From Eledone cirrhosa (taxonomy: Eukaryota): a stretch of DNA of 64,000 nucleotides. Below are positions 16,601 through 64,000 of the stretch, in pieces. A model generated the notes under the pieces. That model was not told the DNA's origin. It searched no databases and saw only the letters and a program-made list of their open reading frames with translations. The position numbers and the translations under genes are program-made. How positions within the stretch are numbered: position 1 is the stretch's first letter; every line of letters begins with the position of its first letter. The stretch is from positions 281,108,001 through 281,172,000 of the forward strand of contig OZ024742.1 in the NCBI GenBank assembly GCA_964016885.1. The letters are read 5' to 3'.

Positions 16601-16842
16601 AATTTCATTCTTCAAGTGTGCGAGTTCATTTGCATTTATTTCTTTATCATTGATAATCGCTTCATTGTCTTCATTTTGAGTTCCATCTTGAACATGCACA
16701 CCTTCCACTTTTTCGATCCTTTCATTAATTTATTCTGCTCTCAGTAATTCCGTCCCCTCCCTGAGATTTAAAGTGTTACAATTTCCTTCGTTTTCCCTGG
16801 CACATGTTTCCTTTTCCCTTCGATGAGTTTGTGCTAATTGCT
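13620..16842 (-). mobile_element. R4/Dong-like non-LTR retrotransposon, family A copy A1 (old, degenerate, 5'-truncated)
   Basis: Fragmented ORFs with [21 protein letters not shown] and YLPRKEGGRGL; 3' UTR matches other A copies and ends at a short ATT tract. Confidence 0.9.
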
Positions 16843-17467
16843 GACTTGTTGTTTATGTCGAACATCTGCTGCGGCGTGTAGGACAGAACCGGCTATCAGC
16901 TGAGTCCATTATGAAGATTGTTCCACCGCCCTCCTTTAAGCAGGAGGGACAGGCAGTTTTTATCTGCCTGGTGGCCATGGTAAAAGAGGTCGTATGGTGG
17001 ACGAGTCTCAAACGGTTGAAGACGGGCACTTTCCTCTTCGGTGACGCCCTCATTAACGTTTTCACCTGAAAATAAAAATCAGGGTGGAGAGTGAAGTGCT
17101 GCTTTCCAGCCAGTTTGTTGAAAGTTGAGAGAGTGAGGCAAGAATGGCCCGTGTGGATAGGCATAATCTGAGAGTGTGCCTGTAGTATCGTAGGAGGAAA
17201 AGTGGAAGAGGGGATTTGCCCTAGCGGTCAGGTTGACCGGGGCATTTTGTGAGCTTTCTCCACGAGAGACTGTCGGACGTCTTCCCCTATTGGGGAATTA
17301 TTCCTTTGTTTTCATTTTACTATTACATCCTTTGTTTTTGCTTTTTATATATATATAAACTTTGTTTTTTCTTACACACAGAAATGTCTCTTTCTACCGT
17401 CCTGTACCGTCATGGGCTGTGCTTAATGTTACATTTTATGTCGATCCTTGTGTTTAATAAAGAAAGC
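16838..17467 (+). mobile_element. Tx1-like LINE 3' fragment C0 (diverged subfamily)
   Basis: Homologous to the ORF2 C-terminus and 3' UTR of C1-C3 (gctgacttg..tttatgtcgaaca; ttaataaagaaagc followed by (ATT)n). Confidence 0.9.
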
Positions 17468-22913: not shown

Positions 22914-23622
22914 AGTTGCATTTATCTTGCTTCATGTTCATACGAGTTATCACCAAGTCACAACCAGTGACCTCAAGAGACAACAAGGTCCGCCATGTTC
23001 AAGAAAGAACATACATACTCACACATGCATCTTTAGTGTTTAGACTTGTGATGTACTTATATTGACAGAATCTTCCTTAGTATATGGGCAGTTCCCATTA
23101 GTACTATCTTTTGTATTTCTCCTATACGCGGGTTTCCTGGGATTTGCTATAAGTAATCATTAGACCCCTTAGGTATCATTCCCAGAGCGCCTACAACCAC
23201 TGGTATTGTTTTAGTTCTCAATTTCCACATTTTTCCAATTTCTATCTCCAGGTCCTTATACTTGCTCAATTTTTCAAATGTTTTTATAGATACATTCTTG
23301 TCTATTGGAACAGACATAGCAATTAGCTGGCATACCATCTTTTTGAAGTCCTTCAATATTATATCAGGTCTATTTGCATCTATTTTTCGGTCTGTTTGGA
23401 TGCTAAAGTCCACAAGATTGAGATGTGATCTTTTTCAAGTATGGGAGGTGGTTGATGCTCCCACCAATTCTTTTGATGGGGCAGGTCAAAATGCTTACAC
23501 ATTATCCAATGTATGTATTGTGCATCTCTGTCATGCCTGTTTATGTATTCGGTTGGAGCTATAGGACTGCACATTGAAATTATATGGTCAATGGTCTCTG
23601 GTTGTTTTTTGCATACACTGCA
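22913..23622 (-). mobile_element. Family A copy A3, 3' fragment (endonuclease domain and 3' UTR)
   Basis: VCKKQPETIDHIISMC...RHD, RPDIILKD, VVGALG; 3' UTR as in A2 and A4. Confidence 0.92.
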
Positions 23623-26600
23623 AAAACAAAATACAGAGGGAAACAAATAAATTAAGAAACAAAAATGTTAGGACAGATATGCCACCATCCACACCAGCAT
23701 CACCAACACCATCACCATCATTAACCCCAACACCACCATCACCTACACCACAAAAGTCACCAAAATGCGAAACAGAAACAAACCCACAACAAACGCAAAC
23801 AAAACAAAACAACCAAAACGATACACACTACACAGCATTAAATTTGAACAACAAACAATTATTACACTACATCCAACACAACACCAGCATCACAGAAAAA
23901 GACTACACAACAACCCCAAAATTCACACCACCTCCACACATACAAATCACTCGCATCACACAGAAAAAGTACATGACACTAAACAGAAATTCCCCAAAGA
24001 CATCGGAGACTTCCGACAAGCACTCTCCAGGAGGATTTATAAGGACATCATTCCTGAGGAGGCCACAAGCAGTGAAAAGGATGGAAAAACCGTCCTTCCC
24101 CTACGAGAAGTAAGGTAAGTGGTCTTTCCCATCTTTTCCACTCCTTTTCAACATGACCTCACTCAGAATAGGCAGCATAAATGCGCGTGGCTTGGGGTCG
24201 TCATGGAAGCAGGGCCACCTGCTCAACGACCTCAGGTCACTAAACATAGATGTAGTGGCCATCAGCGAGACCAGAATCTCCGAAGCACAGGCTTTCGCAC
24301 CGATCTTCGGCGGCTACGATGTGAACGCATCTCCCAGCCGTCCGGGATCGGGAGGAGGAGTTGCTGTGCTTTTTCGGAGAGATTTGGATCTTGCCATACG
24401 GGCCATCTTCCTGGACCCAGAGGGTAAGTTGGTGTTGCTGGACGTGACCAGCGGAGACGGGCAAGCTTTCAGGTTAGTGGCCGTCTACGCCCCGACAGGA
24501 GCAGGGCGGCCTGATTTCTTCCGGCGTCTGGAGACCTTTCTTGGAACGTCCCGCTCTTTAGTGTTAGTGGGCGACTGGAACGGGATCTTAGATGCACGCT
24601 GGGACTGTGTGGGATTAGCGGATAGGGGTGGAGGGTGCAAGAGCCTCACCAACCTGCTCAGGCGTTTTGAACTGTCTGACAGGTACCGAATGGATTTCCC
24701 GAATGTACCAATGTGGACTTGGACAAATCGCATAGGGTCACCCAGATCATATCTAGATAGAGTATTTTGTAGGGAAATAGATAGGTCTAGCATAGGCTGT
24801 CCACAATTCAAGATAGTCAGCTACACAGACCACATATTCGTGAACTGTGTGCTTGACTTAGATAGGCTTCATAGACGAGGACCCGGCTACTGGAAGCTAA
24901 ACGCGTCCCTACCAGCGCGCAAGGCCTACAGAGACCGGATTAGCGAACTAGTTAAGCGGGCGTTGACGGGGGCCATCGTCAACAACAAGTGGTGGTTTGC
25001 CCTGAAAAGAGCAACTAGAATAGAGTCCATTAGGTTTAGTAAGACTTTAGCAATAGAGAAAAATAGAGCAGAGGGAGAATTAGTTAGAAAGTTAGATGAG
25101 GCGCTTAGCAAAGGCATCGCATCTGACGTACTTGCGGCGAAATTGGCCCTTGACCAATTCTTCAATGCAAAGCACGAAGGCTGCGTTGTCAGAGCTAGGG
25201 TGCGTGCTCTCAGACACGAAGGGACGAAAGCCATTCAATGGGCCCGAGTGGCGGAGGCGCGTCGTGGCAACAAAGCCACGATCCGGTCTTTGGTGGACCA
25301 CGACGGGCGCATGCTACTCGATCCCGGGCAAATGTGTGAAGCTTTTCAGCGACACTTCGCCCAACTGTTCGGGGGCAGTGGCGGGCCGGATCGAGGGATG
25401 GACTTTAGTGTCTACCTCGACGGACTGCCGCGGATTTCGGCCACTGAAGCGGAGTGTTGCGAAAAGCCGATAACAACCGCTGAAGTACGGGATGCAATGA
25501 CTAGTTGCACAAGGGGTAAATCGCCTGGTTTGGATGGTCTGCCCTATGAACTTTACGTACAAATGCCAGACTTGTTCAGAGGCCTCTTGGCGGACGTCTA
25601 CTGCAACTGGCAACAGAACGGGAGAATTCCCAGCTTGTGAGCCGAAGAGCGGTGGCGCTGCTGAGAAAGGATCCGAACAAGGGGGATAACATAGATAATT
25701 TTAGGCCCATAATTCTGCTAAACACAGAGTTCAAGATTTTGGCCAAGGTGCTAGCAAAGAGGTTGGCGCTTGTCGTTGGTGGTCTGGTGGGAGAGGCGCA
25801 GACATGCGCCATTCCCGACAGTTCCATCCACGACAACCTCCACCTCTTGCGATACATTGTAGAGAGGGTAGCTAGGGAACCTGGCACGGGTGGGTCTTTG
25901 ATAAATTTAGATCAGTCGAAAGCCTTCGATAGGGTCGACCATCGTTACCTAGCGGCAGTCCTGAGGGCGGCTGGCTTTGGGCCCGACTTCAGAGGCTGGA
26001 TCGCTGCCATGCACGGCGACATCTGCTCTGTAGTGAGAGTGAACGGTCACCTTTCGGAACCGTTCAACAACATGCGCTCGGTCCGCCAAGGATGTCCCCT
26101 CTCGACCCTATTGTACGTATTGACTCTCGAGCCATTACTGCACAAACTGGAGACGTTGAGGGGGGTCCCGCGCGAACTAGGATGCGGAAGATCCGTGTCA
26201 GCATATGCCGACGATGTCACCGTCGTGGTGTCGAACGCCAAACACATCGAGACGATCGGCACTACACTAAAAGAATACGAAGCGGTGACAGGAGCAATGA
26301 TCAACCAAGAAAAGTCAGTGGGCCTGCAGCTCGGCACCTGGAGAGGCAGGTCCATGCCGTCCAACACCGTTGTAGGGCGCTGGACGGACGGGCCGGTTAA
26401 ATTGCTAGGGGTCTGGTTCGGTCCAGACCTCCAGACGGACAAAAACTGGGACGAGGTGACGAGCAGGGTGTCTTCTCTCACCCAGAAATGGGCCGAGAGG
26501 AAGCTATCCTAGAAAGGTCGAGCGGAGGTGGCTAACGCGTACATCGCGTCCGTCATCTACTACCGCCTGACCGTCGTACCTTGTCCTAAGCCCCGCCTTA

Positions 26601-27815
26601 CTGCGCTGGAGCGTTTTCTCTTTCGCTTCTTGTGGAAGGGACGCGCTCCGATGGTCAGGCGGTCCATCTGCTGTCAACACCCGCTACGTGGAGGGCTGGG
26701 CATGCCGTGGCTGATGATGTGCAGACACGCGCTCAGGCTACGACATCTCCACCTCTTCCTCGACGGTGATCAGGTGTGGTCGCCGTTTGCTAGACACGTT
26801 TTTCCCCAGCTCGTCTCCTTGACGGAGCTGCAGTCCTGGGTCAAGCGAAGACCGAGAGGGAGCGCTTGGAGACTGGATAGTCTTCAGGCGCTCACAGCCC
26901 TCGACCAATCGGGCAATGTGATCGGTGGAAACTCCACCTTGGCGTTCTATAGGGGTTTAGTGGAGGGGAAGAGCGACGACGTACTTGGAGAAACTCTAGG
27001 CGTCGACGAAAATCAACTAGCCAATCTCTTCGGAAGGACTTTCGGGCCGGGGTCTATGGACAACTTCCAGAAATGCCTGGCCTGGCAGTGCTACTGGGGT
27101 GTTTGCCAGTTCGGGATAAACTTTACAGGCATGGAGGTGCCGTCAGCCGGGCATGTCCGAGATGCGCACAGGGCGACGAAACCGTCCTGCACGCACTCGT
27201 CCAGTGTCCGAGCATTGCTGACTTGTGGGTTTATGTCGAACACCTGCTGTCACGTGTAGGACGGATCCAGCTATCAGCTGAGTCCATCGTGAGGATTGCC
27301 CCGCCCTCTTCCTTTAGCCGGGACGGACAGGCAGTTTTTATCTGTCTGGTGGCTATGGCGAAAGAGATAGTATGCTGGACACGTTTGAAAGGGCTGAAGA
27401 CGAGCACTTACCTCTTCGGTGATGCCCTGATTAACTTTTTCAAATTTCATCTGAAAAGGAAAATCAGGGTAGAGAGGGAAGTGCTCTCTTCCCAGCATTT
27501 TGTTGAAAGATGGGTGAGAGAAGCAAGTATGGCCCGAATGAATGGGCCTTCTCTGAGTATGTGTCTGTAAATTAAAGGTGGAAAACTGGGAGAGGGCACT
27601 TACCCTGGTGGTCAGGGCCACTGTGGTCTTTTAATGGGCTTTCTCCACAAATGTCCCTCGGAAGTCTCCCCCATATTGGGGAATTTTTCTTTGTTATTTT
27701 ATTTCAACCTCTGTTTTTTTTTACACGCAGAAATGCCCATTTGTACCGTCCTGTATTGTCCTGTACTGTCCTTAATGTCTACTTTATGTAAACCCTTGTG
27801 GTTAATAAAGAAAAC
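23621..27815 (+). mobile_element. Tx1/L1-like LINE copy C1 (5'-truncated within ORF1)
   Basis: ORF1 C-terminus matches C3; ORF2 APE-RT; ends with aataaagaaaac followed by (ATT)n. Confidence 0.93.
24153..27570 (+). pseudogene. ORF2: APE endonuclease, RT, C-terminal CCHC (frameshifts and a stop)
   Basis: SINARG, ISET, VYAP, VGDWN, SYLDR, TDH (APE); FRPI.LLN, LDQSKAFDRVDH, VRQGCPLS, YADD (RT); CPRC...ETVLHALVQC. Confidence 0.93.
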
Positions 27816-27848
27816 ATTATGATTATTATTATTATTATTGTTGTTATT

Positions 27849-32038: not shown

Positions 32039-32044
<6 letters not shown>
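27849..32044 (-). mobile_element. R4/Dong-like element, family B copy B1, near full length
   Basis: Bounded by ATT tracts on both sides; colinear with B2. Confidence 0.92.
27923..31346 (-). pseudogene. Family B single ORF (RT, CCHC, RLE), few frameshifts
   Basis: 675 aa intact piece with KSPGPDG, NYRPITCL, IDYRKAFD, QGDSLSP and FMDD; CRICGEREETVAHIVSEC; IVDVACP...EKINRY...IGALG. Confidence 0.92.
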
Positions 32045-32095
<51 letters not shown>

Positions 32096-32096
<1 letters not shown>

Positions 32097-34112: not shown

Positions 34113-34344
34113 ATTATTATTATTATTATTGAATGCCATGGTTGACGGAGGCTCGGCTCTGTAAGGTATAGTAATTTTTAACCGTTAAAACAATTGTAAA
34201 TTGTTTAAAACTTGAACCAAATTGTTGATAAAGACACCCTCCTCCTCGTGAGAGGGGTATTTCTGTCCGTTATTTGGCCCTTCGGGGTTAAATAACCAGT
34301 TATTGGGTTTTGTACCCAAAATTTCATTTTAAACAAAAAACAAC

Positions 34345-36432
34345 ATGGCTACGAAAAAGAAATTTCATACGTCACTCCCACTCATTCCGTCTTCTTCTTC
34401 CTCAATCATCACTACAGCAGAGAGAAGATTGTCTCTCTCCCTCCCTTCTTTAAATGTGTCTCTCTCCCTCCCTTCTCTTTCGCAAGTGACGAAAGAAAAG
34501 AAAAGTCTCGTGCAAAGCGTGCAAGGTTTCTCCACGACGACGACGACAGCGACGAAACAGGTGTGCGGGAAATACGAAAACCCAGTTCATTCGTCTGACG
34601 TCAGGAATAATAGCAGTAGCAGCCGTAATAACAACAGCAACAGTGACAATGAAAACAACAGTAGCAGCCGCAACAGCATCACCAGCAGCATAAACAACAA
34701 CAGGATTAGCAGCAGCAACACCAACAACAACCACAGCAACAGCGGCGGAGGCAGTAGTCGTAGTACCTGCAGCAACAACAAAAGTACCAGCAGCTCTGAC
34801 GGCAACAACAACAGCAGAGAAAAACCAATCTCATTTGCAGGTATTGCGAAAAACTTGGAAACAATCCTCATAACAAATGAGGAATTAGAGGAAGCGAAGA
34901 GATGGTGACAAAGAACGGACACCGAGCAATCTGCAAGGCAGCGGAAAAATTTTTCGAAACCCAAGAGCACTGTACGGTCACGTACCGTACAGTAAGTACA
35001 AAATCCCGTAGGGTGGAAAGAGCCACAGAGGCCCAAATACAAAAAGCCTTGGGGTCTGTGTGGCAGCGGAAAACGCACATCACCCGAGGCAAAAAATATG
35101 CCACCGTAGACGTACTTTTTGCCACACCCCAGGAGGCAAAGGCCCAATCAGTAGTGACCCTAAGGAGCGAGGAAATGGTGTTGGTGCCCTCCTACTGCGG
35201 GCAAAAAATTGTGAGGGTCAAACTGACCCACGTCCCCCCCCCCGGAATGACCCCTTCTTGGCTGGCCGCGTCTGTCCTCGTCAGAATCGAGGACAAAACA
35301 ACTGTACTGCAAGTACAGAAAAAAGTAAGAGAAGATTGGGTCGGCTCCTCCATTGAGATGCTAATCCAAACCAACCAGGAGTGCATCGAAGCTATCCCGG
35401 ATGTGATAGACTTCGATAACGGCTCATAAGTGTTGAGGGCAAACGCCCGAAATGCTTTCGCTGTGGATCGAAGACTCACCTCAGGGCCTTCTGCAACGAG
35501 AAGACCCTGAGAAAGGAGAAAACCCCCCTCCTTCCGAATCCGGCTCCACGGCTACCAGCAACAGGACAAGCGGCAACCAGGAACGATAGGTCCGTGGCAC
35601 CCATACCCACTCCACGGAAATCAAAAACAGCAGCAGCAGTGGAAATATTAACAACAACAACAGCAATACCAAATGCAGCTGCAACAGAGACTCCAGTGCA
35701 AACATCACCAACAACAACAAGTGAAAGAGTGGAGCTGGTACCCCTCCCCGACCTCACAGAATCAGACATGGAGTGTGAGGTGGGAGAGGGATGGCAAAAG
35801 GTCGCAAGAGGCACAAACGCAGAAGCAGCGCATCGTCGCCTTTGAAAAGGGAGGAAAGAAATGAGAAAAGGGTAAAGTCTACTGCAAAGAGACCCACAGC
35901 AGCAACACCACCAACACCATCACCACCCACACCAGCACCACCATCACCACCGGCGACAACCCCACCGCCAACAACACCTTCAACACCACCACCACAAGCA
36001 CCAACATCGCAAACACAACAACAAAACACACACACCCAGCAACAACGACAAGAAAATAGCAGAACCACACCCCACCCCCAGAAAAACAAATGCACGGCAA
36101 TAAACACACACAACAAGAAACTAATGACTTACATAATTGAACACACAGACATTTCACAACAGGACTACATAATACCAGCACCAATCAAAACGCCAACTAA
36201 CATAAGACTGCTAAAAATAGCACAGAAACAATACACAAACATTAAAACGAAATTCCCCAACGCAGTTGGTGATTTCAGGGACCTAGGAGGAACCATCAAT
36301 CGAAGAGTATATTCAGACATTCTCTTAGAAGAGCCGACGACCAGCCGAAGGGACGATTCAACGGTCCCTTCACCAAACGATCAAGTGAAAAGGGATGTAA
36401 AAACCATCCCTCCTCTACCAAAAGTACGGTAA
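34345..36432 (+). pseudogene. ORF1 (gag-like): low-complexity N-terminus, putative RRM-like core, CCHC knuckle, Pro/Thr-rich linker; frameshifted
   Basis: CFRCGSKTHLRAFC encoded at ~35451-35493; core homologous to C3 ORF1; ends ...PLPKVR*. Confidence 0.8.
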
Positions 36433-36467
36433 GTGGTCTTTCCCATCTTTTCCACTCTATTTTAAAC

Positions 36468-39400
36468 ATGACCTCACTCAGAATAGGCAGCATAAATGCG
36501 CGTCAGGGAAGCAGGGTCACCTGCTCAACGACCTCAGGTCACTAATCATAGATGTAGTGGCCATCAGCGAGACCAGAATCTCCGAAGCACGGGCCTTCGC
36601 ACCGATCTTCGGTGGCTACGATGTGTACGCATCGCCCAGCCGTCCTGGATCGGGTGGAGGAGTTGCTGTGCTTTTTCGGAGAGGTTTGGATCTCGCCATA
36701 CGGGCCATCTTCCTGGACCCAGAGGGTAAGCTGGTGGTGCTGGACGTGACCAGCGGAGACGGGCAAGCTTTCAGGCTAGTGGCCGTCTATGCCCCGACAG
36801 GAGCAGGGCGGCCTGATTTCTTCCGGCGTCTGGAGACCTTTCTTGGAACGTCCCGCTCTTTAGTGTTAGTGGGCGACTGGAACGGGATCTTAGATGCACG
36901 CTGGGACTGTGTGGGATTAGCGGGTAGGGGTGGAGGGTGCAAGAGCCTCACCAACCTGCTCAGGCGTTTTGAACTGTCTGACAGGTACCGATTGGATTTC
37001 CCGAATGTGCCAATGTGGACTTGGACAAACCGCACAGGGTCATCCAGATCATATCTAGATAGAGTATTTTGTAGGGTAATAGATAGGTCTAGCATAGGCT
37101 GTCCACAATTCAAGATAGTCAGCTACACGGACCACAAATTCGTGACCTGTGTGCTTGACTTAGATAGGCTTCATAGACGAGGACCCGGCTACTGGAAGCT
37201 AAACGCGTCCTTACCAGCGCGCAAGGCCTACAGAGACCGGATTAGCGAACTAGTTAAGCGGGCGTTGACGGGGGCCATCGTCAACAACAAGTGGTGGTTT
37301 GCTCTGAAAAGAGCGATTGGAATAGAATCGATTAGGTTTAGTAAGGCTTTAGCAATAGAAAAAAATAGAGCAGAGGGAGAACTAGTTAGAAAATTAGACG
37401 AGGCGCTTAGCAAAGGCATTGCGACCGACGTGCTTGCGGCGAAATTGGCCCTTGACCAATTCTTCAATGCAAAGCACGAAGGCTGCGTTGTCAGAGCTAG
37501 GGTGCGTGCTCTCAGACACGAGGGGACGAAAGCCGTTCAATGGGCCCGAGTGGCGGAGGCGCGTCGTGACAAGAAAGCCACGATCCGGTCTTTGGTGGAC
37601 CACGACGGGCGCATGCTACTCGATCCCGGGCAAATGTGTGAAGCTTTTCAGCGACACTTCGCTCAGCTGTTCGGGGGAAGCGGGGGGCCGGGTAGAGGGA
37701 TGGACTTTAGTGTCTACCTCGACGGACTGCCGCGGCTCTCGGCCACTGAGGCGAAGTGTTGCGAAAAGCCGATAACAGCCGCTGAAGTAAGGGAGGCAAT
37801 GACTGGCTGCACAAGGGGTAAATCGCCTGGTTTGGATGGTCTGCCCTATGAACTTTACGTACAGATGCCAGACTTGTTCGGAGGCCTCTTGGCGGACGTC
37901 TACTGCAACTGGCAACAGAACGGGAGAATTCCCAGTTCTGTGAGCCGAGGAGCGGTGGCACTGCTGAGAAAGGACCGAACAAGGGGGATAACATAGACAA
38001 TTTCCGGCCCATAACTCTGCTAAACACAGAGTTCAAGATTTTGGCCAAGGTGCTAGCAAAGAGGTTGGCGCTTGTCGTTGGTGGTCTGGTGGGAGAGGCG
38101 CAGACATGCGCCATTCCCGACAGATCCATCCACGACAACCTCCACCTCATGCGATACATCATAGAGAGGGTAGCTAAGGAACCTGGCACGGGTGCGTCCT
38201 AGATCAATTTAGATCAGTCGAAAGCTTTCGATAGGGTCGACCATCGTTACCTAACGGCAGTCCTGAGGGCGGCTGGCTTTGGGCCCGTCTTCAGAGGCTG
38301 GATCGCTGCCATGCACAGCGACATCTGCTCTGTGGTGAGAGTGAACGGTCACCTGTCGGAACCGTTAAACATCATGCGCACTGTCCGCCAAGGATGTCCC
38401 CTCTCGTCCCTCTTGACTCTCGAGCCATTACTGCACAAACTGGAGACGTTGAGGGGAGTCACGCGCGAACTAGGATGCGGAAGATCCGTGTCAGCATATG
38501 CCGACGATGTCACCGTAGTGGTGTCGAACGCGAAACACATCGAGGCGATCGGCACTACACTAAGAGAATACGAAGCGGTGACAGGAGCAATGATCAACCA
38601 GGAAAAGTCAGTGGGCCTGCAGCTCAGCACCTGGAGAGGCAGGTCCATGCCGTCCAACAGCGTCGTCGGGCGCTGGACGGACGGACCGGTTAAATTGCTA
38701 GGGGTCTGGTTCGGTCCGGACCTCCAGACGGACAAAAACTGGGACGAGGTGACGAGCAGGGTGGCTTCTCTCACCCAGAAATGGGCGGAGAGGAACCTAT
38801 CCCTGAAAGGTCGAGCGGAGGTGGCTAACGCGTACATCGCGTCTGTCATCTGCTACCGCCTAACCGTCGTACCTTGTCCTAAGCCTCGCCTGACTGCGCT
38901 GGAGCGTTTGCTCTTCCGCTTTTTGTGGAAGGGACGTGCTCCGATGGTCAGGCGGTCCATCTGTTGTCAACACCCGCTACGTGGAGGGCTGGGCATGCCG
39001 TGGCTGATGATGCGCAGGCACGCCCTCAGGCTACGACATCTCCACCTCTTCCTCGACGGTGATCAGGTGTGGTCGTCGTTTGCTAGACGCGTTTTTCCCC
39101 AGCTCGTTTCCTTGACGGAGCTGCAGTCCTGGGTCAAGCGAAGACCGAGAGGGAGCGCCTGGAGACTGGAATGTCTTCAGGCGCTCACAGCCCTCGACCA
39201 ATCGGGCAATGTGATCGGTGGAAACTCCACCTCGGCGTTCTATAGAGGATTAGTGGAGGGGAAGAGCGACGACGTACTTGGGGAAACTCTAGGCGTCGAC
39301 GAAAATCAACTAGCCAATCTCTTTGGAAGAACTTTCGGGCCAGGGCCTATGGACAACTTCCAGAAATCTCTGGCCTGGCAGTGCTACCGAGGAGCCTTGC

Positions 39401-39863
39401 CAGTTCGGGATAAACTCTACAGGCATGGGGTGCCGTCAGCCGGGCATGTCCGAGATGCGCGCAGGGCGACGAAACCGTCCTGCACGTACTCGTCCAGTGT
39501 CCGAAAATTGCTGACTTGTGGGTTTATGTCGAACACCTGCTGTCGCGTTTAGGACGGATCCGGCTATCATCTGAGTCCATCGTGAGGATTGCCCCGCCCT
39601 CCTCCTTTAGCCGGGAACGGCAGGCAGTTTTTATCTGCCTGGTGGCCATGGTGAAAGAGATAGTATGGTGGACACGTTTGAAAGGGCTGAAGACGAGCAC
39701 TTACCTCTTCGGTGATGCTCTGATTGACTTTTTCAAATTTCATTTGAAAAGGAAAATCAGAGTAGAGAGGGAAGTGCTCTCTTCCCATCATTTTGTTGAA
39801 AGATGGGTGAGAGAAGCAAGAATGGCCCGAGTGAATGGGCCTACTCTGAGTATATATCTGTAA
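36468..39863 (+). pseudogene. ORF2 APE-RT of C2, disrupted
   Basis: Same motifs as C1, in 479, 413 and 115 aa pieces. Confidence 0.92.
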
Positions 39864-40359
39864 ATTAAAGGTGGAAAACTGGTAGAGGGCACATGCCTTG
39901 GTGGTCAGGGTCATTGTGGCTTTTTACTGGGCTTTCTCCACAAATGTCCCTCCGAAGTCTCCCCCCTATTGGGGAATTTTTCATTGTTATTTTGTGTTAC
40001 ATCCTCTGTTTTGTTTTTTACACGCAGAAATGCCCATTTGTACCGTCCTGCATTGTCCCGCACTGTCCTTAATGTCTACTTTATGTAAACCCTTGTGGTT
40101 AATAAAGAAATCATTATTATTATAATTATTATTATTATTATTATTATTATTGGCGACCTACGTAGTAAATCGTATCATCGTGAGCTCCGCAAAGGTTTGT
40201 TATTTCCGTTTGTTAAAAATTGTCATTTATGGAAAATTTTATTGTTAACTGTTTATAAGCGCACATACATTGTTTTCCGAAAAGGACACCCAAAAAGATT
40301 GGGGCCTTGTGCCCAAAATTTAAACTTTTATTATTATCAAAAAAATTTCTCTGAAAAAA

Positions 40360-42352
40360 ATGGCTAATTCACCTCTGCACGAAGCAGCTGAAAGCCTTCC
40401 TCACAAATTAACACCTCACACCGACACCACCATTGTAAATGTTACTACGTTTGCCAACACAAAACAAATATAAGCAGTAGCAATATTTTAAATTTGTCTC
40501 AGGCAGACATTCATTTCCCGCCATTACCAATGACTGCAGGTGTTAAAGCCTCCACCACCACCGCGACAACCACCACCCCCACCACCACCGCGACAACAGA
40601 AACAAAAGAAGAAAAAAATAAATTAACTCGTGATGTCGAAATGAAATCAAGCAAAATGGACTCTTCCGCACCGAAGACGAATGACGTCACCACCACCACA
40701 ACTGAAACAAAAATTAAGATTACCACAAATAACGATAGCAACAACAACAACAATGACATTATAAAACCGACCCTCAGTTTCGCCATCGTAGCAAAACAAT
40801 TCGAAGCGTTCACGGTAACTCAAGAAGATTTAGAAAATGCCAAACAAATGGTAAAGAAAGATGGGTACAGGGTCAGCCTCACCCCCCCCCACACCTAATA
40901 AAATGGAGCATCGGCGCCTGTGCACCGTGTCGTATAGAACAATAAATGTAAAATCGCGCCGAGTGGAACGGGCATCCGAGTCCCAAATCCAAAAAGCTTT
41001 GGGACATGTGTGGGCAAGAAAAACCCACATCAGACGTGGGAAAAGTATGGAACCGTGGATGTGTTCTTTGAAACACCAGAGGAGGCTAGAGGACACTCCA
41101 TGGCCCCATTAAAAAGTGACGACCTCACACTCGTCCCAAGCTATTGTGGCCAGAGACTCGTAAAGGTCAGGGTGACCCACGTTCCACCGGCCATCGAAAT
41201 TCCCTGGCTAATAGCGGCTGTCCTCGCCGGCATCGAAGCCAACACGAAAATAATAGCAGTAGCAAAAGAAAAGCAGGAAAACTGGTCCGGTTCTGGGATG
41301 GAGCTCCTGATCCAAGCGGACCAAAAAAGCATTGAGGAGATCCCAGAGGTAATAGACCTCACTGACGGCAGCCACCTCACGGTAATTGTCGAGGGCAGAA
41401 GACCTAGGTGTGTCGTTTGTGGTGAAGGAACCCACCTAAGGGCTTTCTCTTCCCTCAGGTTAAAAGGTTGAGGCCACCTCTCCTACCCACACCAGTGACA
41501 CAACCATCAACACCACCAGTAGCAGAGATGGCAGCAACAACTGTAGCAGCAACAACAGAAGCAACTATAACAGCAACAACCCCAGCAATAGTAGCAAAAC
41601 CAACACCACAACCACCACCAGCAAAACCAACACCACCACCACCCAACGCTTCAGAACTAGCACCAGCGCCTACACCATCCACCACACCACAACCAAAAGT
41701 AACGGCTGTGGAGGATTTTCCACTCCCCGGCCTATCACAACTGGAGACAGATTGTGACGACGAGGAGTGGGAAACGATATCCGGAAAAAAAAAAGAAACC
41801 AAAAAAGAAAAAAATTCTCTTCCTTCCCCCTCCAAAAACAAAATACAGAGGGAAACAAATAAACTAAGAGACAAAAAAGTTAGGACAGATATGCCACCAT
41901 CCACACCAGCATCACCAACCCCATCAACCCAAACACCAACACCATCACCATCATTATCCCCAGCACCACCATCACCTACACCACAAAAGTCACCAAAATG
42001 CGAAACAGAAACAAACCCACAACAAACGCAAACAAAACAAAACAACCAAAACGATACACACTACACAGCATTAAATTTGAACAACAAGCAATTATTACAC
42101 TACATCCAACACAACACCAGCATCACAGAAAAAGACTACACAACAACCCCAAAATTCACACCACCTCCACACATACAAATCACTCGCATCACACAGATAA
42201 CGTACATGACACTAAAACAAAAATTCCCCAAAGACATCGGAGACTTCCGACAAGCACTCTCCAGGAGGATTTATAAGGACATCCTTCCTGAGAAGGCCAC
42301 AAGCAGTGAAAAGGATGGAAAAGCCGTCCTTCCCTTACGAGAAGTAAGGTAA
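40360..42352 (+). pseudogene. ORF1 of C3, frameshifted (start uncertain)
   Basis: CTVSYRTINVKSRRVERASESQIQKALG, LVPSYCGQ, EGRRPRCVVCGEGTHLRAF; ends ...LPLREVR*. Confidence 0.78.
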
Positions 42353-45300
42353 GTGGTCTTTCCCATCTTTTCCACTCCTTTTCAACATGACCTCACTCAG
42401 AATAGGCAGCATAAATGCGCGTGGCTTGGGGGTCGTCATGGAAGCAGGGTCACCTGCTCAACGACCTCAGGTCACTAAACATAGATGTAGTGGCCATCAG
42501 CGAGACCAGAATCTCCGAAGCACAGGCTTTCGCACCGATCTTCGGCGGCTACGATGTGTACGCATCTCCCAGCCGTCCGGGATCGGGGGGAAGAGTTGCT
42601 GTGCTTTTTCGGAGAGGTTTGGATCTTGCCATACGGGCCATCTTCCTGGACCCAGAAGGTAAGTTGGTGGTGCTGGACGTGACCAGCGGAGACGGGCAAG
42701 CTTTCAGGTTAGTGGCCGTCTATGCCCCGACAGGAGCAGGGCGGCCTGATTTCTTCCGGCGTCTGGAGACCTTTCTTGGAACGTCTCGCTCTTTAGTGTT
42801 AGTGGGCGACTGGAACGGGATCTTAGATGCACGCTGGGATTGTGTGGGATTAGTGGATAGGGAAGGAGGGTGCAAGAGTCTCACCAACCTGCTCAGACGT
42901 TTTGAACTGTCTGACAGGTACCGAATGGATTTCCCGAATGTACCAATGTGGACTTGGACAAATCGCATAGGGTCATCCAGATCATATCTAGATAGAGTAT
43001 TTTGTAGGGAAATAGATAGGTCTAGCATAGGCTGTCCACAATTCAAGATAGTCAGCTACACGGACCACAAATTCGTGACCTGTGTGCTTGACTTAGATAG
43101 GCTTCATAGACGAGGACCCGGCTACTGGAAACTAAACGCGTCCTTATCAGCGCGCAAGGCCTACAGAGACCGGATTAGCGAACTAGTTAAGCGGGCGTTG
43201 ACGGGGGCCATCGTCAACAACAAGTGGTGGTTTGCTCTGAAAAGAGCAATTAGAATAGAGTCCATTAGGTTTAGTAAGACTTTAACAATAGAGAAAAATA
43301 GAGCAGAGGGAGAATTAGTTAGAAAATTAGATGAGGCGCTTAGCAAAGGCATCGCGACCGACGTACTTGCGGCGAAATTGGCCCTTGACCAATTCTTCAA
43401 TGCAAAGCACGAAGGCTGCGTTGTCAGAGCTAGGGTGCGTGCTCTCAGACACGAGGGGACAAAAGCCGTTCAATGGGCCCGAGTGGCGGAGGCGCGTCGT
43501 GGCAACAAAGCCACGATCCGGTCTTTGGTGGACCACGACGGGCGCATGCTACTCGATCCCGGGCAAATGTGTGAAGCTTTTCAGCGACACTTCGCTCAAC
43601 TGTTCGGGGGCAGTGGCGGGCCGGATCGAGGGATGGACTTTAGTGTCTACCTCGACGGACTGCCGCGGCGTTCGGCCACTGAGGCGGAGTGTTGCGAAAA
43701 GCCGATAACAACCGCTGAAGTACGGGATGCAATGACTAGTTGCACAAGGGGTAAATCGCCTGGTTTGGATGGTCTGCCCTATGAACCTTACGTACAAATG
43801 TCAAACTTGTTCGGAGGCCTCTTGGCGGACGTCTACTGCAACTGGCAACAGAACGGGAGAATTCCCAGCTCTGTGAGCCGAGGAGCGGTGGCGCTGCTGA
43901 GAAAGGATCCGAACAAGGGGGATAACATAGACAATTTTAGGCCCATAACTCTGCTAAACACAGAGTTCAAGATTTTGGCCAAGGTGCTAGCAAAGAGGTT
44001 GGCGCTTGTCGTTGGTGGTCTGGTGGGAGAGGCACAGACATGCGCCATTCCCGACAGATCCATCCACGACAACCTCCACCTCATGCGATACATCGTAGAG
44101 AGGGTAGCTAGGGAACCTGGCACGGGTGGGTCTTTGATCAATTTAGATCAGTCGAAAGCCTTCGATAGGGTCGACCATCGTTACCTAACGGCAGTCCTGA
44201 GCGCGGCTGGCTTTGGGCCCGTCTTCAGAGGCTGGATCGCTGCCATGCACAGCGACATCTGCTCTGTAGTGAGAGTGAACGGTCACCTTTCGGAACCGTT
44301 CAACCTCATGCGCTCGGTCCGCCAAGGTTGTCTCCTCACGTCCCTATTGTACGTATTGACTCTCGAGCCATTACTGCACAAACTGGAGACGTTGAGGGGG
44401 GTCCCGCGCGAACTAGGATGCGGAAGATCCGTGTCAGCATATGCCGACGATGTCACCGTAGTGGTGTCGAACGCGAAACACATCGAGGCGATCGGCACTA
44501 CACTAAGAGAATACGAAGCGGTGACAGGAGCAATGATCAACCAGGAAAAGTCAGTGGGCCTGCAGCTCAGCACCTGGAGAGGCAGGTCCATGCCGTCCAA
44601 CAGCGTCGTCGGGCGCTGGACGGACGGACCGTTTAAATTGCTAGGGGTCTGGTTCGGTCCAGACTTCCAGACGGACAAAAACTGGGACGAGGTGACGAGC
44701 AGGGTGGCTTATCTTACCCAGAAATGGGCCGAGAGTAAGCTATCCTAGAAAGGTCGAGCGGAGGTGGCAAATGCGTACATCGCATCCGTCATCTACTACC
44801 GCCTGACCGTCGTACCTTGTCCTAAGCTCCGCCTGCCTGCGCTGGAGCGTTTGCTCTTTCGCTTCTTGTGGAAGGGACGCGCTCCGATGGTCAGGCGGTC
44901 CATCTGCTGTCAACACCCGCTACGTGGAGGGCTGGGCGTGCCGTGGCTGATGATGCGCAGACACGCGCTCAGGCTACGACATCTCCACCTCTTCCTCGAC
45001 GGTGATCAGGTGTGGTCGCCGTTTGCAAGACACGTTTTTCCCCAGCTCGTCTCCTTGACGGAGCTGCAGTCCTGGGTCAAGCGAAGACCGAGAGGGAGCG
45101 CTTGGAGACTGGAATGTCTTCAGTCGCTCACAGCCCTCGACCAATCGGGCAATGTGATCGGTGGAAACTCCACCTTGGCGTTCTATAGGGGATTAGTGGA
45201 GGGGATGAGCGACGACGTACTTGGAGAAACTCTAGGCGTCGACGAAAATCAACTAGCCAATCTCTTCGGAAGGACTTTCGGGCCAGGGCCTATGGACAAC

Positions 45301-45964
45301 TTCCAGAAATCCCTGGCCTGGCAGTGCTACCGAGGAGCTTTGCCAGTTCGGGATAAACTCTACAGGCATGGAGGTGCCGTCAGCCGGGCATGTCCGAGAT
45401 GCGCGCAAGGCGACGAAACCGTCCTGCACGCACTCGTCCAGTGTCCGAGCATTGCTGACTTGTGGGTTTATGTCGAACACCTGCTGTCACGTGTAGGACG
45501 GATCCAGCTATCAGCTGAGTCCATCGTGAGGATTGCCCCGCCCCCTTCCTTTAGCCTGGAAGGGCAGGCAGTTTTTATCTGTCTGGTGGCCATGGCGAAA
45601 GAGATAGTATGGTGGACACGTTTGAAAGGGCTGAAGACGAGCACTTACCTCTTCGGTGATGCCCTGATTAACTTTTTCAAATTTCATTTGAAAAGGAAAA
45701 TCAGGGTAGAGAGGGAAGTGCTCTCTTCCCAGCATTTTGTTGAAAGATGGGTGAGAGAAGCAAGTATGGCCCGAATGAATGGGCCTTCTCTGAGTATGTG
45801 TCTGTAAATTAAAGGTAGAAAACTGGGGGAGGGCACTTGCCCTGGTGGTCAGGGCCACTGTGGTCTTTTAATGGGCTTTCTCTACAAATGTCCCTTGGAA
45901 GTCTCCCCCCTATTGGGGAATTTTTCTTTGTTATTTTATTTCAACCTCTGTTTTTTACACGCAG
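42349..45964 (+). other. Putative spliceosomal intron spanning all of ORF2 (equivalents 24115-27730 and 36429-40027)
   Basis: Donor AG|GTAAGT at the ORF1 stop; acceptor ttttttacacgcag| in the 3' UTR; the join keeps the ORF1 frame open to a stop just before AATAAA. Confidence 0.5.
42387..45807 (+). pseudogene. ORF2 APE-RT of C3, nearly intact (one frameshift near 42430, one TAG at 44746)
   Basis: 777 aa and 347 aa pieces in the same frame; full APE, RT and CCHC motifs. Confidence 0.93.
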
Positions 45965-46048
45965 AAATGCCCATTTGTACCGTCCTGTATTGTCCTGTAC
46001 TGTCCTTAATGTCTACTTTATGTGAACCCTTGTGGTTAATAAAGAAAA

Positions 46049-46049
<1 letters not shown>

Positions 46050-46118
<69 letters not shown>
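46050..46118. repeat. (ATT)n tract between C3 and B2 (tail-to-tail)
   Basis: Direct inspection; equivalent tracts at 17468-17490, 27816-27848, 32042-32095, 34112-34130, 40113-40151, 50437-50476, 51717-51752, 56609-56633 and 56821-56860. Confidence 0.95.
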
Positions 46119-46119
<1 letters not shown>

Positions 46120-50437: not shown

Positions 50438-50476
50438 TATTATTATTATCATTATTATTATTATGATTATTATTAC

Positions 50477-51716: not shown

Positions 51717-51752
<36 letters not shown>

Positions 51753-51753
<1 letters not shown>

Positions 51754-58492: not shown

Positions 58493-61400
58493 CCGGATGG
58501 TATAGACGTGCTTCACATCGGCTCCTCGATTATTGGATATATTACAGGTTAATAGTAAGTGTGTGTTCTTGCGTTATTGTGTTAATTAACCCCCTTGCCT
58601 GGGTCTTCGGACATTAGGGCTTAATTTATTTCACCCCTTTGTGGGTGAAAATGTTCATCCTAAAAATTTTGTGATTGTCTCTACGCTAGTGGTAATGGAA
58701 TCCATTACCACGAGTAATGATGACACGCCCACTAAACAATCTGAAGGAGAGCGTGTAGTTGAGGCAACAAGCCTCCCTACTGAAAAAATAATGATTATTA
58801 GAAACATTGAAAACATGGAGCCTAACCCCAATGAAAAAAATGTGAAAAAAATTGACTCGGAGAAATTGCCAACATTAATGGATGCCGTTTCGATTTTTCA
58901 CGGTGCCACGCCTACCAGAAAAGGTGAAAGAGAATTAGTAGCTGTGACTACAAGTCTCTCGGATACTGAAAATATAAGTGAACTTTTTTAAGAAATGGTG
59001 TCTAACCCCAACGGGAAAAAAATGTGAACGCGTACACCAACATAAATAACACAAACACAACAAAAAATGATAATTGTAACAACAAAAAACAAGAAAACAA
59101 CCACATTTCGACAAATGTAAAGAAAGTGGGGGCGAACAAAATGACGTTCGCTCAAACTACCAAAAAAAAACATTGTGTATGAACCTATTGACATTTCGAA
59201 CATGGCCCAGCAAATGGAAAATGCACGGAAGTATATAACTTTGGAGGAGAATGGTCTATTTTCTTTAAATTCTCCCTCAGAGCTAAAAAAGGAAAATAGC
59301 TTAAAATGTATTATTTATAGGACAATATCAAACAAAACCCGTAAGCCAGTACAACTCACACAGACAGAGATTGAACTGGCTTTAAAAGATCATCTGAAAA
59401 ACATTGTATTCATTCGGAAGGATAGACTCTACGGTAGTCTATCCATCCGAATGAAAGATAAATTGACGGCCGAAAAACATTCCCTGGCCTCAATTGTGTC
59501 CCCCTTATTTATCTTCTTCCCTACTTATTTGGGAAGAAGAACACAAAGATTGACCATATACAGTATCGATCCACATATTGATTTCTGGGCGGTTCTGTGT
59601 GGCCTCTTCGACTTGAAAGAGGATGAAGTAATTTCGGTAAGTAAGACTTCCAGCAACGTGTTCGGTGGAACTAGCCTGCAAGTTCTGATGCAAATGCAGC
59701 CAGAACGAATTGCTAGGATACCCCCCCCCCCCCCCAGAAAACCAGAAAACAAATACAATAACACCCACACCACAAACACGAGCCGAAAATGAACCCCTCC
59801 CCTCGAATACGGAAGACGGGGGGGAACACTTTCATAAAGTTAAAAGAAAAAAAAGAAAACACACCACAGGAACACAAATACAAACAACCCCTCCCCAATA
59901 CATAACACAGATATCAACACAAAAAAAACACACAACAACAGCAAACAAAAAACATCACTCAAAAAGAAAAATATGCCTACACTTACATAAATACAATAAA
60001 CAAAAAACTGTTAAACGTTATTTATAATAGGAGGGCAGAGGATTGGCAGTAGCGGTAGAGGGTCGGACGCCATGCTTTCTAGCGTAGTTACGTCCCTTTA
60101 CGATCTGAGTTCAAATCCCGCCGAGGTTGACTTTGCCTTTCAACCTTACGGGGTCGATAAAATAAAGTACCTGTAATTCACTGGGTAATTGCTGGCCTTG
60201 TGCCTAAAGTAGAAACAGTTACTTATAATAACAACTTAATAAAAACCGAAGGTTCGAATTTCGCACAAGCAATGGGGCTTCCCCATCTAAAAATGATAAA
60301 AGCCCCAATGGACATTTACGAAACGTTAAAAGACACTTTTAAAGAGGACTGGGGCCCCCTTGCGTCAGACCCATTAACCGTGTCCTCCTAAAAAATGCCC
60401 CCCACCCCCCAGACACCCACACAACTCCAAACACCTCAACCCCACCACTCACTGATGCCCTAAAATTCCACAAACCATCACCCCACCCAACAACCTAAAC
60501 CGCACCCCCATGGAAATTGTGCGGCCCAGTCCCCGGGACGCAGAGAGGTAAGTGCCTTTTTTCTTTACCACCAACATGACTGTGTTGAGAATAGGTTGTC
60601 TAAATGCGCGTGGCCTGGGCTCACCTTGAAAGCAAGCAATGCTTCTAAAAGACCTCAGGTCACGATGTATAAATGTGATGGTTATTTGCGAGGCCCGGAT
60701 CAGCAGCGTGCGACAGCTGTCCTCACCTTTGATGACATTGAGATGCACGCATCTCTCTGTCAGCCCGGAGGTGGGGGTGGGATTGTCGCTCTGCTGCAAG
60801 AACATCTGGGTCTCGCTACACAGACGGTACGCTTGGACCCGGAGAGTCGACTAGGTTCAGGATCTTGGCAGTGGTGAAGGCGGAGCTTTTAGGCTGGTTG
60901 CCATTCAACGGCCCTTTTCGGTCAACGCGGCCGGACTTCTTCCATCGTCTGGAGACTTTTCTAGGGACGTCCCGCTCCTTGCTTTTAGTGGGGGACTGGA
61001 ATGGTATCCTAGATGCACGTTGGGACTATGTAGGGGCATGTCCTGATAGAGGGGCTTGTAACAGCCTCATTGGGTTAATCGGCCGATTCGACCTGGCCGA
61101 TAGATATCGACTAGATTTTCCGACTGTGCCAACCTGGAGTTGGAGAAACCATAGCGGTCAAACTAGATCGTACCTAGATAGGTTCTTAGTTAGAAATAAG
61201 GATAGGGACTTTTTAAGTTGTATAAATATGCTCATGGTTGGCTATTCCGACCACAAGTTAGTGACCTCCATGGTCAACCAACCTTGATAGAACGCATAGA
61301 CAGGGACCGGTTCCTGGAACTCAACTTGTCCTTACCGGCAAGTAAATCTTACAGGAACCGGATTAGTACTTTAGTTAATGAGCGGTTGATGGGCGCCATC

Positions 61401-64000
61401 GTCAACAGCAGGTGGTGGGGGCTCCCTCAAAAGAGAGATTAGAGTAGCTTCAATAAGAGTTAGTAAGGAGTTAGCCTCTGATAGAAATAGGAAGGAAAGG
61501 GAGTTGGTAGATAGTGTAGAAGAGGCAATTAGAAGCGGCAACGTAGCCAGAGTGCTAGCGTCGAGAACGGCCTTGGGCCAGTTCTTCGACGCGAAACACG
61601 AAGGCTGCGTTGTCCGAAGCAAAATACGTGCTCTGGGATACGAGGGGACCAAAGCTGTTAGCTGGGCCCGCGTGGCAGAAGCCAAAAGTGGGATTAGATC
61701 CACTATCCGGTTTTTGCGAGACCAGGATAGACGGGTGATCCTTGAACCTAAGCAGATGTGCGAGGCCTTTCAAAGGCACTTTGCCCGATTGTTCGGAAGG
61801 GACGAGGGGCCGGATGGGGATCTGGACCTCGGTCCATACCTCGACGCCTGCCACGTCTTTCGGACGAGGAAGCGAAGTCCTGCGAGAGGCCGATCTCAGC
61901 TGCTGAGTTAGGGGACGTGCTGAGCCAATGCGGTAGACGCAAATCTCTAGGCTTCGATGGTCTTCCATACGAACTGTATTTAAGTATGCCGGACTTGTTC
62001 TTCGATCTCCACGAAGCTGTCTAATGCAAGTGGCAACAGAACGGGAGAATTCCCTGTTCTGTGACTAATGGCGTAGTCTCGCTAGTGAGGAAGGACGAGA
62101 ACAAGGGGCAACGAAATAAGTAATTTTAGGCTCATAACACTGCTAAATGCAGAGTTAAAGATTTTGGCCAGGGTGCTAGCAAAGAGGGTGGCGTTTGTCG
62201 TGGGCAACTTGGTGGGAGATGCGCAGAGATGCGACATCCCGTCCAGGTCCATTCAGGATAACCTCCATCTCATGCGATAGATCATAGAGAGGGTTGGGAA
62301 TGAACCCGGCTTTTCGCGGGGGGGGGGGGGGGGGGGGCTGATCAACTTGGATCAATCTAAGGCGTTCGATAGGGTCGACCATCGTTACCTGGATGCCGTG
62401 CTAGTGGTGGCAGGTTTCGTACCCGTTTTCAGGGGCTGGATCACAGCCATGCACAGCAGCCGCATCTGCTCCTGGGTCAAGGTGAACGGCTACCTCTCGG
62501 AGCCGTTCGAAATCACGCGGTCCATCCGACAGGGATGCCCTCTCTCCTCCCTTCTATATGTATTGGCCCTAGAGCCACTGCTGCGGAAGTTGGAGTTGTT
62601 ATAGGGCATCCCTTTGGAACTGGGATTGCGGAAAGCGGTGTCGGCCTACGCCGATGACGTGACAGTAATGGTGTCACCGCCTCGGAAATCGGGGTCATCG
62701 GCACCTTACTGGAGGAATACGAAACGTTTACAGGGGCTAAGCTGAACCGGGACAAGTCAGTTGGTTTTCAACTCGGCGAGTGGAGTGGCAAACCGATGGC
62801 CTCCAATGGAGTCGTCGGACGTTGGACGGAGGGCCCGGTGAAGTTGCTCGGGGTCTGGTTCGGCCAGTCCTCCAGGTGGGGAAGAACTGGGGCGAGGTAT
62901 CGAACAGGGTGTATGCGCTGACGCGGAATTGGGCTGGGTGCAAACTATCCCTTAAAGGTCGGGCGGAGGTGGCGAACGCTTATATAGCGTCCGTCATCTA
63001 TTGCCGCCTGGCCGTCGTGCCTTGCCCAAGCGAAACGCTCACCAAAATGGAGCGCGCATTCTTCCAATTCCTTTGGAAGAAGCGGGCTCCTTTGGTGAGG
63101 AGATCCATCTGTGGTCAACACCCTTCGAAAGGAGGGCTGGGGATGTCGTGGCTGCTGATGCGTAAACACGCATTAAGGATACTGCACCTCCAGGTATTCC
63201 TAACCGGTCAACCGGTGTGGCCCCGTTTGTGAGGCGAGCCTTTCTGAGACTCGTCTCGCAAACCGAGCTGCAGTCCTGGGTCAAGCAAAGACCAAGAAAA
63301 CTGGGCGCCTGGCACACCGAGTGTGCCCAGGCGCTCACGGCTCTCCGGCAGGCGGACCCGGCTATCGGTTGAGACTCCACCTCGTCATTCTATAGAGGGA
63401 TGGTGGTTAGTAGGTGCGACGACGCCCTCGGACAAGCCCTAGGAGGAAGACGAACTGGCCAGCCTATTCGGGAGGTCATTTGGCCCGGGACCTATGGACA
63501 ACTTCCAGAGGTCACTGGCCTGGCAGTGCTACCGAGGGGCGCTGCCCGTTCGAGAAAAGCTCTACAGACACGGGCGCCCGGGTAGGGACCCCTCGAAAAA
63601 AATATGTCCCAGATGCGTGCGCGATGAGGAAACTGTTGCGCACGCATTGGTACACTGCTCGTGCGTTGCCGATCTGTGGGGCTATGCCGAACGACTGCTG
63701 TCCCGGGTGGGACTAATTCGGTTGACCACTGAGTCCATTGTAATGATCAAGTCGCTCCCCCCCCTTCAAAAATGAAGGAGAGGCGGTCTTCCTCTGGGTA
63801 ATAGCCATGGTGAAAGAGGTGGTATGGTGGACACGTTTGAAAGGGCTGAGGTCGGACACCCATCTCTCCGGCCAACAACTAGTCCTTTTCTTTAAATACC
63901 ATTTTAAGAGAAGGATCAGAATGGAGAAAGAGGTGCTCTGCCCTAGCAAGTTTTATGAAAGGTGGGTGAAAGTAGCGAGAATGGCCCGTGTGAATGGGCC
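58493..64000 (+). mobile_element. Divergent Tx1/L1-like LINE D, degenerate, running off the window (ORF1 ~58641-60551; ORF2 from 60576); 5' boundary uncertain
   Basis: CIIYRTISNKTRK and FFPTYLGR in ORF1; RIGCLNARG, VGDWNG, SYLDR, YSDH, DQSKAFDRVDH, IRQGCPLS, YADD and CPRC..EETVAHALVHC in ORF2. Confidence 0.88.
60031..60217 (+). mobile_element. SINE inserted in ORF1 of D with 13 bp TSD (1 mismatch)
   Basis: gttatttataata at 60017-60029 and gttacttataata at 60218-60230. Confidence 0.9.

Follow-up and report, generated by a model that had tools for sequence, protein, structure and literature searches.

Splicing has mostly been viewed as damage to L1 retrotransposons. In the plant Ty1/Copia elements EVD (PMC5580714) and BARE1 (PMC3735527), conserved splicing yields a GAG-only RNA and, with it, structural protein in excess over enzyme. 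Long interspersed nuclear elements (LINEs) are generally regarded as dependent on an unspliced bicistronic RNA, their open reading frame (ORF) 2 being made by reinitiation (PMC2881922). Here, we describe a LINE family, family C, in a 64,000-nt stretch of the octopod Eledone cirrhosa (contig OZ024742.1, positions 281,108,001 to 281,172,000, forward strand; this whole stretch is called the window), in which candidate splice sites bracket ORF2. Judging from these signals, splice sites are likely built into this LINE lineage. The explanation that we prefer, with a probability of about 0.55, is that a splice from a donor at the ORF1 end (D1) to an acceptor in the 3′ untranslated region (UTR) yields an ORF1-only mRNA, the unspliced RNA being the genome and the sole source of ORF2. 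Such a strategy would be a variant of the subgenomic-RNA expression known from Copia elements, here in a LINE without long terminal repeats (LTRs).

Family C would work like the GAG-only strategy of EVD and BARE1, but these are LTR elements; EVD couples its splice to premature termination, whereas in the window element the whole enzyme ORF would be an intron and the normal 3′ end would be kept. Functional donors and acceptors inside a LINE, as proposed here, are described for human L1 (splicing and SpIREs, PMC5860796), although the events in the available text lie within the 5′ UTR or between 5′ UTR and ORF1, give internally deleted RNAs and do not bracket ORF2. Tad, TART and Penelope/Athena are listed as non-LTR elements with introns or subgenomic RNAs (PMC1636488); in the accessible part of that source, the TART introns are antisense, and Tad, TART and Penelope are not described with an ORF2-spanning sense intron. 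The Tx1 LINEs Kibi, Koshi and Keno (PMC4494074) resemble the window element in an ORF2 with apurinic/apyrimidinic endonuclease (APE), reverse transcriptase (RT) and zf-RVT domains, in a zinc-knuckle ORF1 and in microsatellite flanks, which are (TC)n and (TTC)n for Kibi and Koshi versus (ATT)n here; unlike for the window element, a conserved donor-acceptor architecture is not reported in the available pages. In our literature search, with most subscription papers and Repbase outside it, no Tx1-like LINE was reported to have an intron that spans ORF2. Active L1-Tx1 families are named in the available text of an annotation of octopus repeats, in which no word starts with "splic" or "intron" (PMC13282606), and the available part of a bivalve survey mentions no such architecture (PMC10294476).

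The features concerned are given below in window coordinates, a slash marking the splice border; M1 and M2 are two related families introduced further on.

40152..46049, + strand: copy C3, a near full-length L1-group (Tx1-like) LINE between (ATT)13 and (ATT)23.
40360..42352, + strand: ORF1 of C3, its frame broken by frameshifts and stops and its zinc knuckle decayed; the stop TAA lies within the donor.
42349..42354, + strand: donor D1 of C3, AG/GTAAGT, in phase 2; it overlaps the ORF1 stop, and a pyrimidine-rich spacer comes next.
42387..45807, + strand: ORF2 of C3, with APE endonuclease, RT and zf-RVT.
42398..42400, + strand: rival proximal acceptor in C3, the first AG after D1, a CAG in ORF2 codons 4-5; it would give a 52-nt intron and an in-frame ORF1-ORF2 fusion.
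45815..45820, + strand: weak donor-like site 3′ of the C3 ORF2 stop, GTAGAA; GTGGAA in C1 and C2, absent in C0, a full donor here in M1 and M2.
45941..45964, + strand: candidate acceptor of C3, a T-rich tract plus CAG with 14/20 pyrimidines; it ranks joint third among the 44 AG-free YAG sites of C3.
45965..46049, + strand: candidate terminal exon of C3, 85 nt, with 19 codons, a stop at 46023-46025 and AATAAA at 46038; coding constraint is not evident.
46050..46118, + strand: (ATT)23, tail or target microsatellite of C3.
23618..27816, + strand: copy C1, 5′-truncated within ORF1; donor GTAAGT starting at 24115, acceptor CAG ending at 27730.
34131..40112, + strand: copy C2, with another ORF1 (40-70% amino acid identity to C3) and (ATT)n on both flanks; donor at 36429 in a CG/ context, acceptor end at 40027.
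16837..17465, + strand: copy C0, an old 3′ fragment, ~78% identical; acceptor end at 17381.
58500..64000, + strand: divergent family D, 5′ end approximate; donor at 60548 overlapping the ORF1 stop, 3′ UTR beyond the window.

In C1, C2, C3 and D, the TAA within GTAAGT is the ORF1 stop each time, and the T-rich tract plus CAG is present in 4/4 C copies, ~85 nt upstream of the tail; C0, being 5′-truncated, has no ORF1. These donors and acceptors were all recovered where the initial annotation had placed them. Joining them by coordinates removes 3616 nt (C1), 3599 nt (C2) and 3616 nt (C3) and, as had also been claimed, extends ORF1 in frame, by 19 codons after a split Arg in C1-C3, to a stop just before AATAAA. 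The 5′ splice site scores 8-9/9 in C1, C2, C3, D and M1 and 5/9 in M2, the score being the number of matches to a MAG/GTRAGT consensus and not the output of a trained splice model. As a background, 31 of the 2445 TAA triplets of the window (both strands) lie within GTAAGT (1.3%), and ~1-2% of the 21-nt windows in these elements contain a donor scoring at least 8/9. The initial annotation saw the donors as kept in spite of strongly divergent ORF1s. The ORF1 of C2 does differ; the DNA homology, however, reaches back to ~45 nt before the donor, and the donor region of C1-C3 is common by descent. The window therefore offers only two semi-independent cases, C and D; D is ~70% identical to C3 in ORF2 nucleotides and ~22-25% in ORF1 amino acids.

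One alternative takes the signals as unused by-products of TAA stops with favourable flanks, of T-rich LINE 3′ UTRs and of common descent. GTAAGT includes TAA, so any phase-2 match overlaps the stop (PMC2911113). The related families M1 and M2 bear on this point. They came from a prokaryote-genome scan, in which 43 of 46 loci fell in one metagenome-assembled genome, G001, whose small contigs hold AT-rich animal-like DNA with LINE tandem arrays of ~43% ORF2 identity; these animal-like contigs are apparently host contamination, and only one of the 49 genomes in a family search around G001 contained the element, namely G001. In a quick tree of 42 rows, named references not being among them, C, D, M1 and M2 form one clade with a Shimodaira-Hasegawa-like approximate likelihood ratio test (SH-aLRT) support of 99; this clade has no supported grouping with U2-inserted or 5S-adjacent elements.

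The ORF2 of M1 is 43% identical in amino acids to the window element, and its D1, AAG/GTAAGT, lies 1 nt after the ORF1 stop. The 16-mer bearing this donor follows 61 of 62 ORF1-end markers in G001, and the 62nd marker is probably a one-base-insertion variant keeping GTAAGT. The M1 donor thus stands outside the stop codon, and its hexamer is invariant while +7 and +8 vary, both of which argue against by-products. M1 also has a second donor, D2 (GTRAGTA), which lies at or overlaps the ORF2 stop, or follows it by 17 nt, in 35/35 distinct 3′ segments; its sole variation is the tolerated A or G at +3, which again is not what by-products would lead one to expect. Some D2 sites overlap the ORF2 stop in just the way that the D1 of family C overlaps the ORF1 stop, and between subfamilies the nearby stop shifts position while D2 itself stays. 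After D2 comes a U-rich stretch of variable sequence and, ~250 nt on, an acceptor in which a branch-like T-n-A triplet and a TAG are invariant and the pyrimidine tract between them varies in length; this pattern was found in 35/35 distinct 3′ segments, eight of them aligned, the related copies being one lineage with internal variation. In the one M2 segment, CAG/GTAAGT lies 43 nt 3′ of the ORF2 stop, and a strong acceptor is present as well. Every one of the C, M1 and M2 lineages has an exact GTRAGT at one ORF end or more, a further point against by-products.

As controls, we used 83 distant L1/Tx1-like loci, partly interrelated and called automatically. The ORF1 stop could be scored in 20 of them, the 63 others being dropped for want of an endonuclease start (26), of sufficient 5′ DNA (15), of a Met (11) or of an ORF1 (11). 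A donor of at least 8/9 occurred near the ORF1 stop in 2/20 scorable controls and near the ORF2 stop in 0/30. Fisher tests gave p = 0.018 for D1 in 3/4 lineages (C, D, M1), p = 0.067 leaving out C, and p = 0.006 for the second donor, a site found post hoc. Control L004 has an exact GTRAGT overlapping its ORF1 stop, and L016 also scores 8; with the absence of D1 from M2 and with controls that are few, besides interrelated and automatic, this favours by-products, which we nevertheless rate as rather improbable. Donor-like sites lie at or near the ORF1 stop of the distant marine elements L004 (1454-1459) and L012 (1440-1475), and a donor at the ORF1 end may recur outside the C/D/M1/M2 clade.

The ORF2s of C3 and M1 contain zero sense AATAAA, and therefore a canonical poly(A) signal there cannot yield an ORF1-only RNA, a point in favour of the splice; Tad is said to make short ORF1-region RNAs by early polyadenylation. 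At four-fold sites, the ORF2s of C3, M1 and M2 are A-poor (0.14-0.21), with 1/19 controls as low (L051, of doubtful ORF1 call, omitted), which fits an avoidance of early poly(A) signals. This is one of the features expected if the donors bind the U1 small nuclear ribonucleoprotein (snRNP) and are rarely joined to their own acceptor, serving instead to block premature polyadenylation across ORF2, to retain the RNA in the nucleus or to splice to downstream host exons. Conservation is also far lower in the octopod acceptor than in the donors, M1 never loses its 3′ UTR intron, and an additional GTAAGT stands ~30 nt from the 5′ end of M1 (L086:3732-3737), no acceptor being evident before ORF1. U1 binding alone would, on the other hand, have no need of the complete acceptor of M1, branch-like triplet and variable pyrimidine tract included, in 35/35 segments, and we consider this use of the donors unlikely.

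According to the ORF1-only explanation, transcription of family C would give a single pre-mRNA. Unspliced, it would be the bicistronic genomic RNA, in which the TAA of the donor ends ORF1, ORF2 is translated and the RNA is copied into new sites. Spliced from D1 to the 3′-end acceptor, it would be a short ORF1-only mRNA, giving excess ORF1 protein and a lower ORF2 output; control of the ORF1:ORF2 ratio and somatic silencing are the possible roles that the initial annotation proposed. LINE proteins prefer their own RNA (cis-preference); since the spliced RNA would make no ORF2, the ORF2-containing intron would never be lost. An mRNA with its stop at or close to a junction escapes nonsense-mediated decay, and the ORF1-only mRNA, with its stop so placed, should by our reasoning escape it as well. 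From the positions of the signals, the frame and the conservation in M1, we infer the splicing itself, the partner acceptor and the purpose. At the level of the clade, the splice-signal architecture is real and probably functional.

The part of the proposal that concerns the peptide fared differently. The initial annotation had the terminal exon supply ORF1 with a new C-terminus and pointed to several third-position changes in C0, which are only some of the differences there. Over 16 codons, C0 and C1/C3 differ by 3.5 synonymous and 7.5 non-synonymous changes, a non-synonymous to synonymous rate ratio (dN/dS) of 0.73; C2 versus C1/C3 gives 0.69, compared with 0.49 for the ORF2 tail of C0 versus C3, all from small numbers. 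The frame of C0 shifts by one base after codon 16, a 10-nt unit occurs three times in the exon, and the ORF1 stop of M1 lies in exonic sequence, before the donor, where splicing would leave ORF1 unextended. In C1-C3 the frame runs open until a stop immediately ahead of AATAAA, and the CG/ change of C2 retains Arg in both readings; with the points above, however, a spliced RNA encoding a second ORF1 isoform, with a ~20-residue extension that is functional and under selection, appears very unlikely, and the new C-terminus is not upheld. As far as the sequences tell, the constant feature is the position of the donor at the ORF end and not the peptide, and the 19 extra residues are probably incidental. 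The last 86 nt fold into weak and unlike structures in C3 and C0 (no shuffle control). ORF1-only RefSeq models exist in Octopus sinensis and O. bimaculoides; none of those read carries the extension, and we do not count them as support. The C-terminal part of one O. sinensis gene model, P0037, matches this ORF1 family and is apparently a LINE fragment that an isoform of a host gene has taken up.

The octopod D1 may also be joined to the first downstream AG, sought from +30 in C and from +10 in D, which would remove a mini-intron of 42-53 nt (52, 53, 52 and 42 nt in C1, C2, C3 and D) and fuse ORF1 to ORF2 in frame in each case. This AG, after a pyrimidine-rich spacer, splits one and the same Arg codon of ORF2 in phase 2 in all four copies; such a phase match, though, arises one time in three by chance and is common by descent, and the site in D is a GAG. 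Introns of 42-53 nt are at or below the usual animal minimum. The fused RNA would moreover be copied in cis and lose its intron, while all four copies retain it, and in M1, with its ORF1 stop ahead of the donor, fusion cannot occur. A search for longer (fused) ORF2 relatives returned 2 weak matches of 31-33% identity. We give this fusion very little credence.

Several observations weigh against the ORF1-only explanation itself. M2 is without D1 and has instead a TAATG stop-start overlap (L116:7676-7680), its best donor there scoring 5/9; the conservation of donor and ORF2 intron that the initial annotation looked for in related families thus holds for the D1 of M1 and fails in M2, which has another donor and acceptor. 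When M1 and M2 alone are taken as independent tests, 1/2 versus 2/20 is not significant (p = 0.26). The octopod acceptor is moderate (14/20 pyrimidines), without the invariant branch point, none being seen in family C, and it lies in a 3′ UTR conserved throughout. A GGGGA-T-rich motif common to C and M1 precedes the acceptor in C and follows it in M1, so the octopod and M1 acceptors may be non-homologous. The proximal D2 of M1 would compete with D1. The predicted extension was found at the end of none of 11 ORF1-like proteins (10 fetched; 9 relevant without the unrelated P0032; P0033 left out).

Copies bearing the ORF1-to-3′-end junction numbered 0 in the window and 0 in 68 G001 loci, with 0 of 62 ORF1 ends in G001 showing it; the spacing of M1 donors, 5.3-6.9 kb, leaves no room for inserted ORF1-only units. 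The precisely spliced or HAL1-like copies envisaged by the initial annotation were accordingly not encountered in either place. HAL1 elements (PMC5753468) are ORF1-only L1 derivatives, and a retrotransposed spliced RNA would look alike, but the available text gives no splicing origin for them. Besides, the ~250-nt 3′ UTR intron of M1 is kept in 60/60 testable units (59 by pattern, 1 by unchanged distance; 3 of 63 markers, at contig ends, left out). Cis-preference leaves this retention unexplained; it would need separate RNA pools or else an intronic signal for replication or promoter activity.

Tentatively, and with clearly less probability than the ORF1-only splice, the clade may choose between two 5′ splice sites, one per ORF end, with a common 3′ UTR acceptor. 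Three RNAs would result: the ORF1-only mRNA, a 3′-UTR-spliced bicistronic mRNA for translation, and the unspliced RNA, which alone would be copied. The octopod families would have kept the first donor only, a good second donor at the ORF2 stop being absent in family C, and M2 the second only. If this were true, translation and replication would occur in separate RNA pools, contrary to LINE cis-preference, and the host could shut the element off through splicing.

A search of sequencing runs with 40170-42400 listed none of RNA that contains it, which says nothing on expression. Four contig sets of unrecorded library type were compared with 40170-46049 at a loose likeness of 85% and a share of 2%; the predicted joint was not among the 15 joints listed, beside which there were 1065 more. 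The summed contig depth of run X1 shows no clear excess of ORF1 and terminal exon over ORF2, depth there not being equal to copy number, and one X8 contig runs unspliced across the donor from a C2-type ORF1 into ORF2. In contigs of runs X1 and X5, position 46047 or 46049 is followed directly by 45955, as tandem repeats of the last ~93 nt (window 45955-46049), the repeat starting inside the T tract, 10 nt before the acceptor.

By its domains, the window element is an APE/RT LINE of the L1 group. Its ORF2 matches the Pfam families Exo_endo_phos, RVT_1 and zf-RVT, the best solved relative being human L1 ORF2p (E 3e-135), and the hallmarks of the group are present: a separate upstream ORF1, a poly(A) signal in the 3′ UTR, a simple-repeat tail and 5′-truncated copies. 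Membership of Tx1 is likely; our tree contained no named Tx1 references. The ORF1 of the Tx1 clade carries a CCHC zinc knuckle; zf-CCHC is above the cut-off in M1 (21.3 versus 20.8 bits), below it in M2 and decayed in C3, and no Pfam match to the ORF1 of C3 or to P0028 was obtained. Named relatives are an ORF2 in Argonauta hians (57%) and ORF1s in Octopus sinensis and O. bimaculoides, as would suit an octopod host. An Rfam search of the window and six M loci gave no match, nor did a viral contig scan with the element. C3 is a decayed copy: besides the lesions in ORF1, its ORF2 has a frameshift near 42428 and a stop at 44746-44748, the latter not common to most aligned contigs. Among the control elements, L019, L026 and L027 end in U2 snRNA (Keno-like), and L001 adjoins 5S rRNA.

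C2 and C3 stand head to tail with (ATT)n on both sides, surrounded by minus-strand LINEs of another kind. These belong to two families, A and B (13595-16842, 17689-22700, 27816-34113 and 46086-55841), which carry an RT, (TAA)n tails and, at the C-terminus, a motif of the restriction-like endonuclease type; within (ATT)n they are nested with family C in a tail-to-tail arrangement. We take them to resemble Dong/R4 (PMC13282606). C0 and C1 are 5′-truncated and lack such (ATT)n flanks, few copies on which to judge a target preference, and their truncated 5′ ends (16837 and 23618) each lie head to head with a 5′-truncated A element with an overlap of ~5 nt. Different ORF1 types stand on nearly identical ORF2s in family C (36384 versus 42305), the switch point being ~45 nt before the donor, and the M1 arrays too mix ORF1 subfamilies (G001 contigs C15 and C19). 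In this bacterial genome assembly, contigs C2-C19 (L081-L151) hold head-to-tail arrays of intact LINEs with a period of ~6.4-6.9 kb; contig C16 holds an array of an LTR-type element, and the tandem-repeat listing of the arrays contains no telomeric repeat.

In Octopus vulgaris, L1-Tx1 is among the recently active groups, with 13 families and 421 insertions in the available text (PMC13282606), and existing octopus RNA data can therefore test the splicing directly. A non-LTR lineage whose splice sites at the borders of its ORFs are maintained across about one substitution per RT site would be an example of retrovirus- or Copia-like expression outside LTR elements; with it, one can ask directly how an excess of ORF1p arises and how a retroelement keeps an intron.

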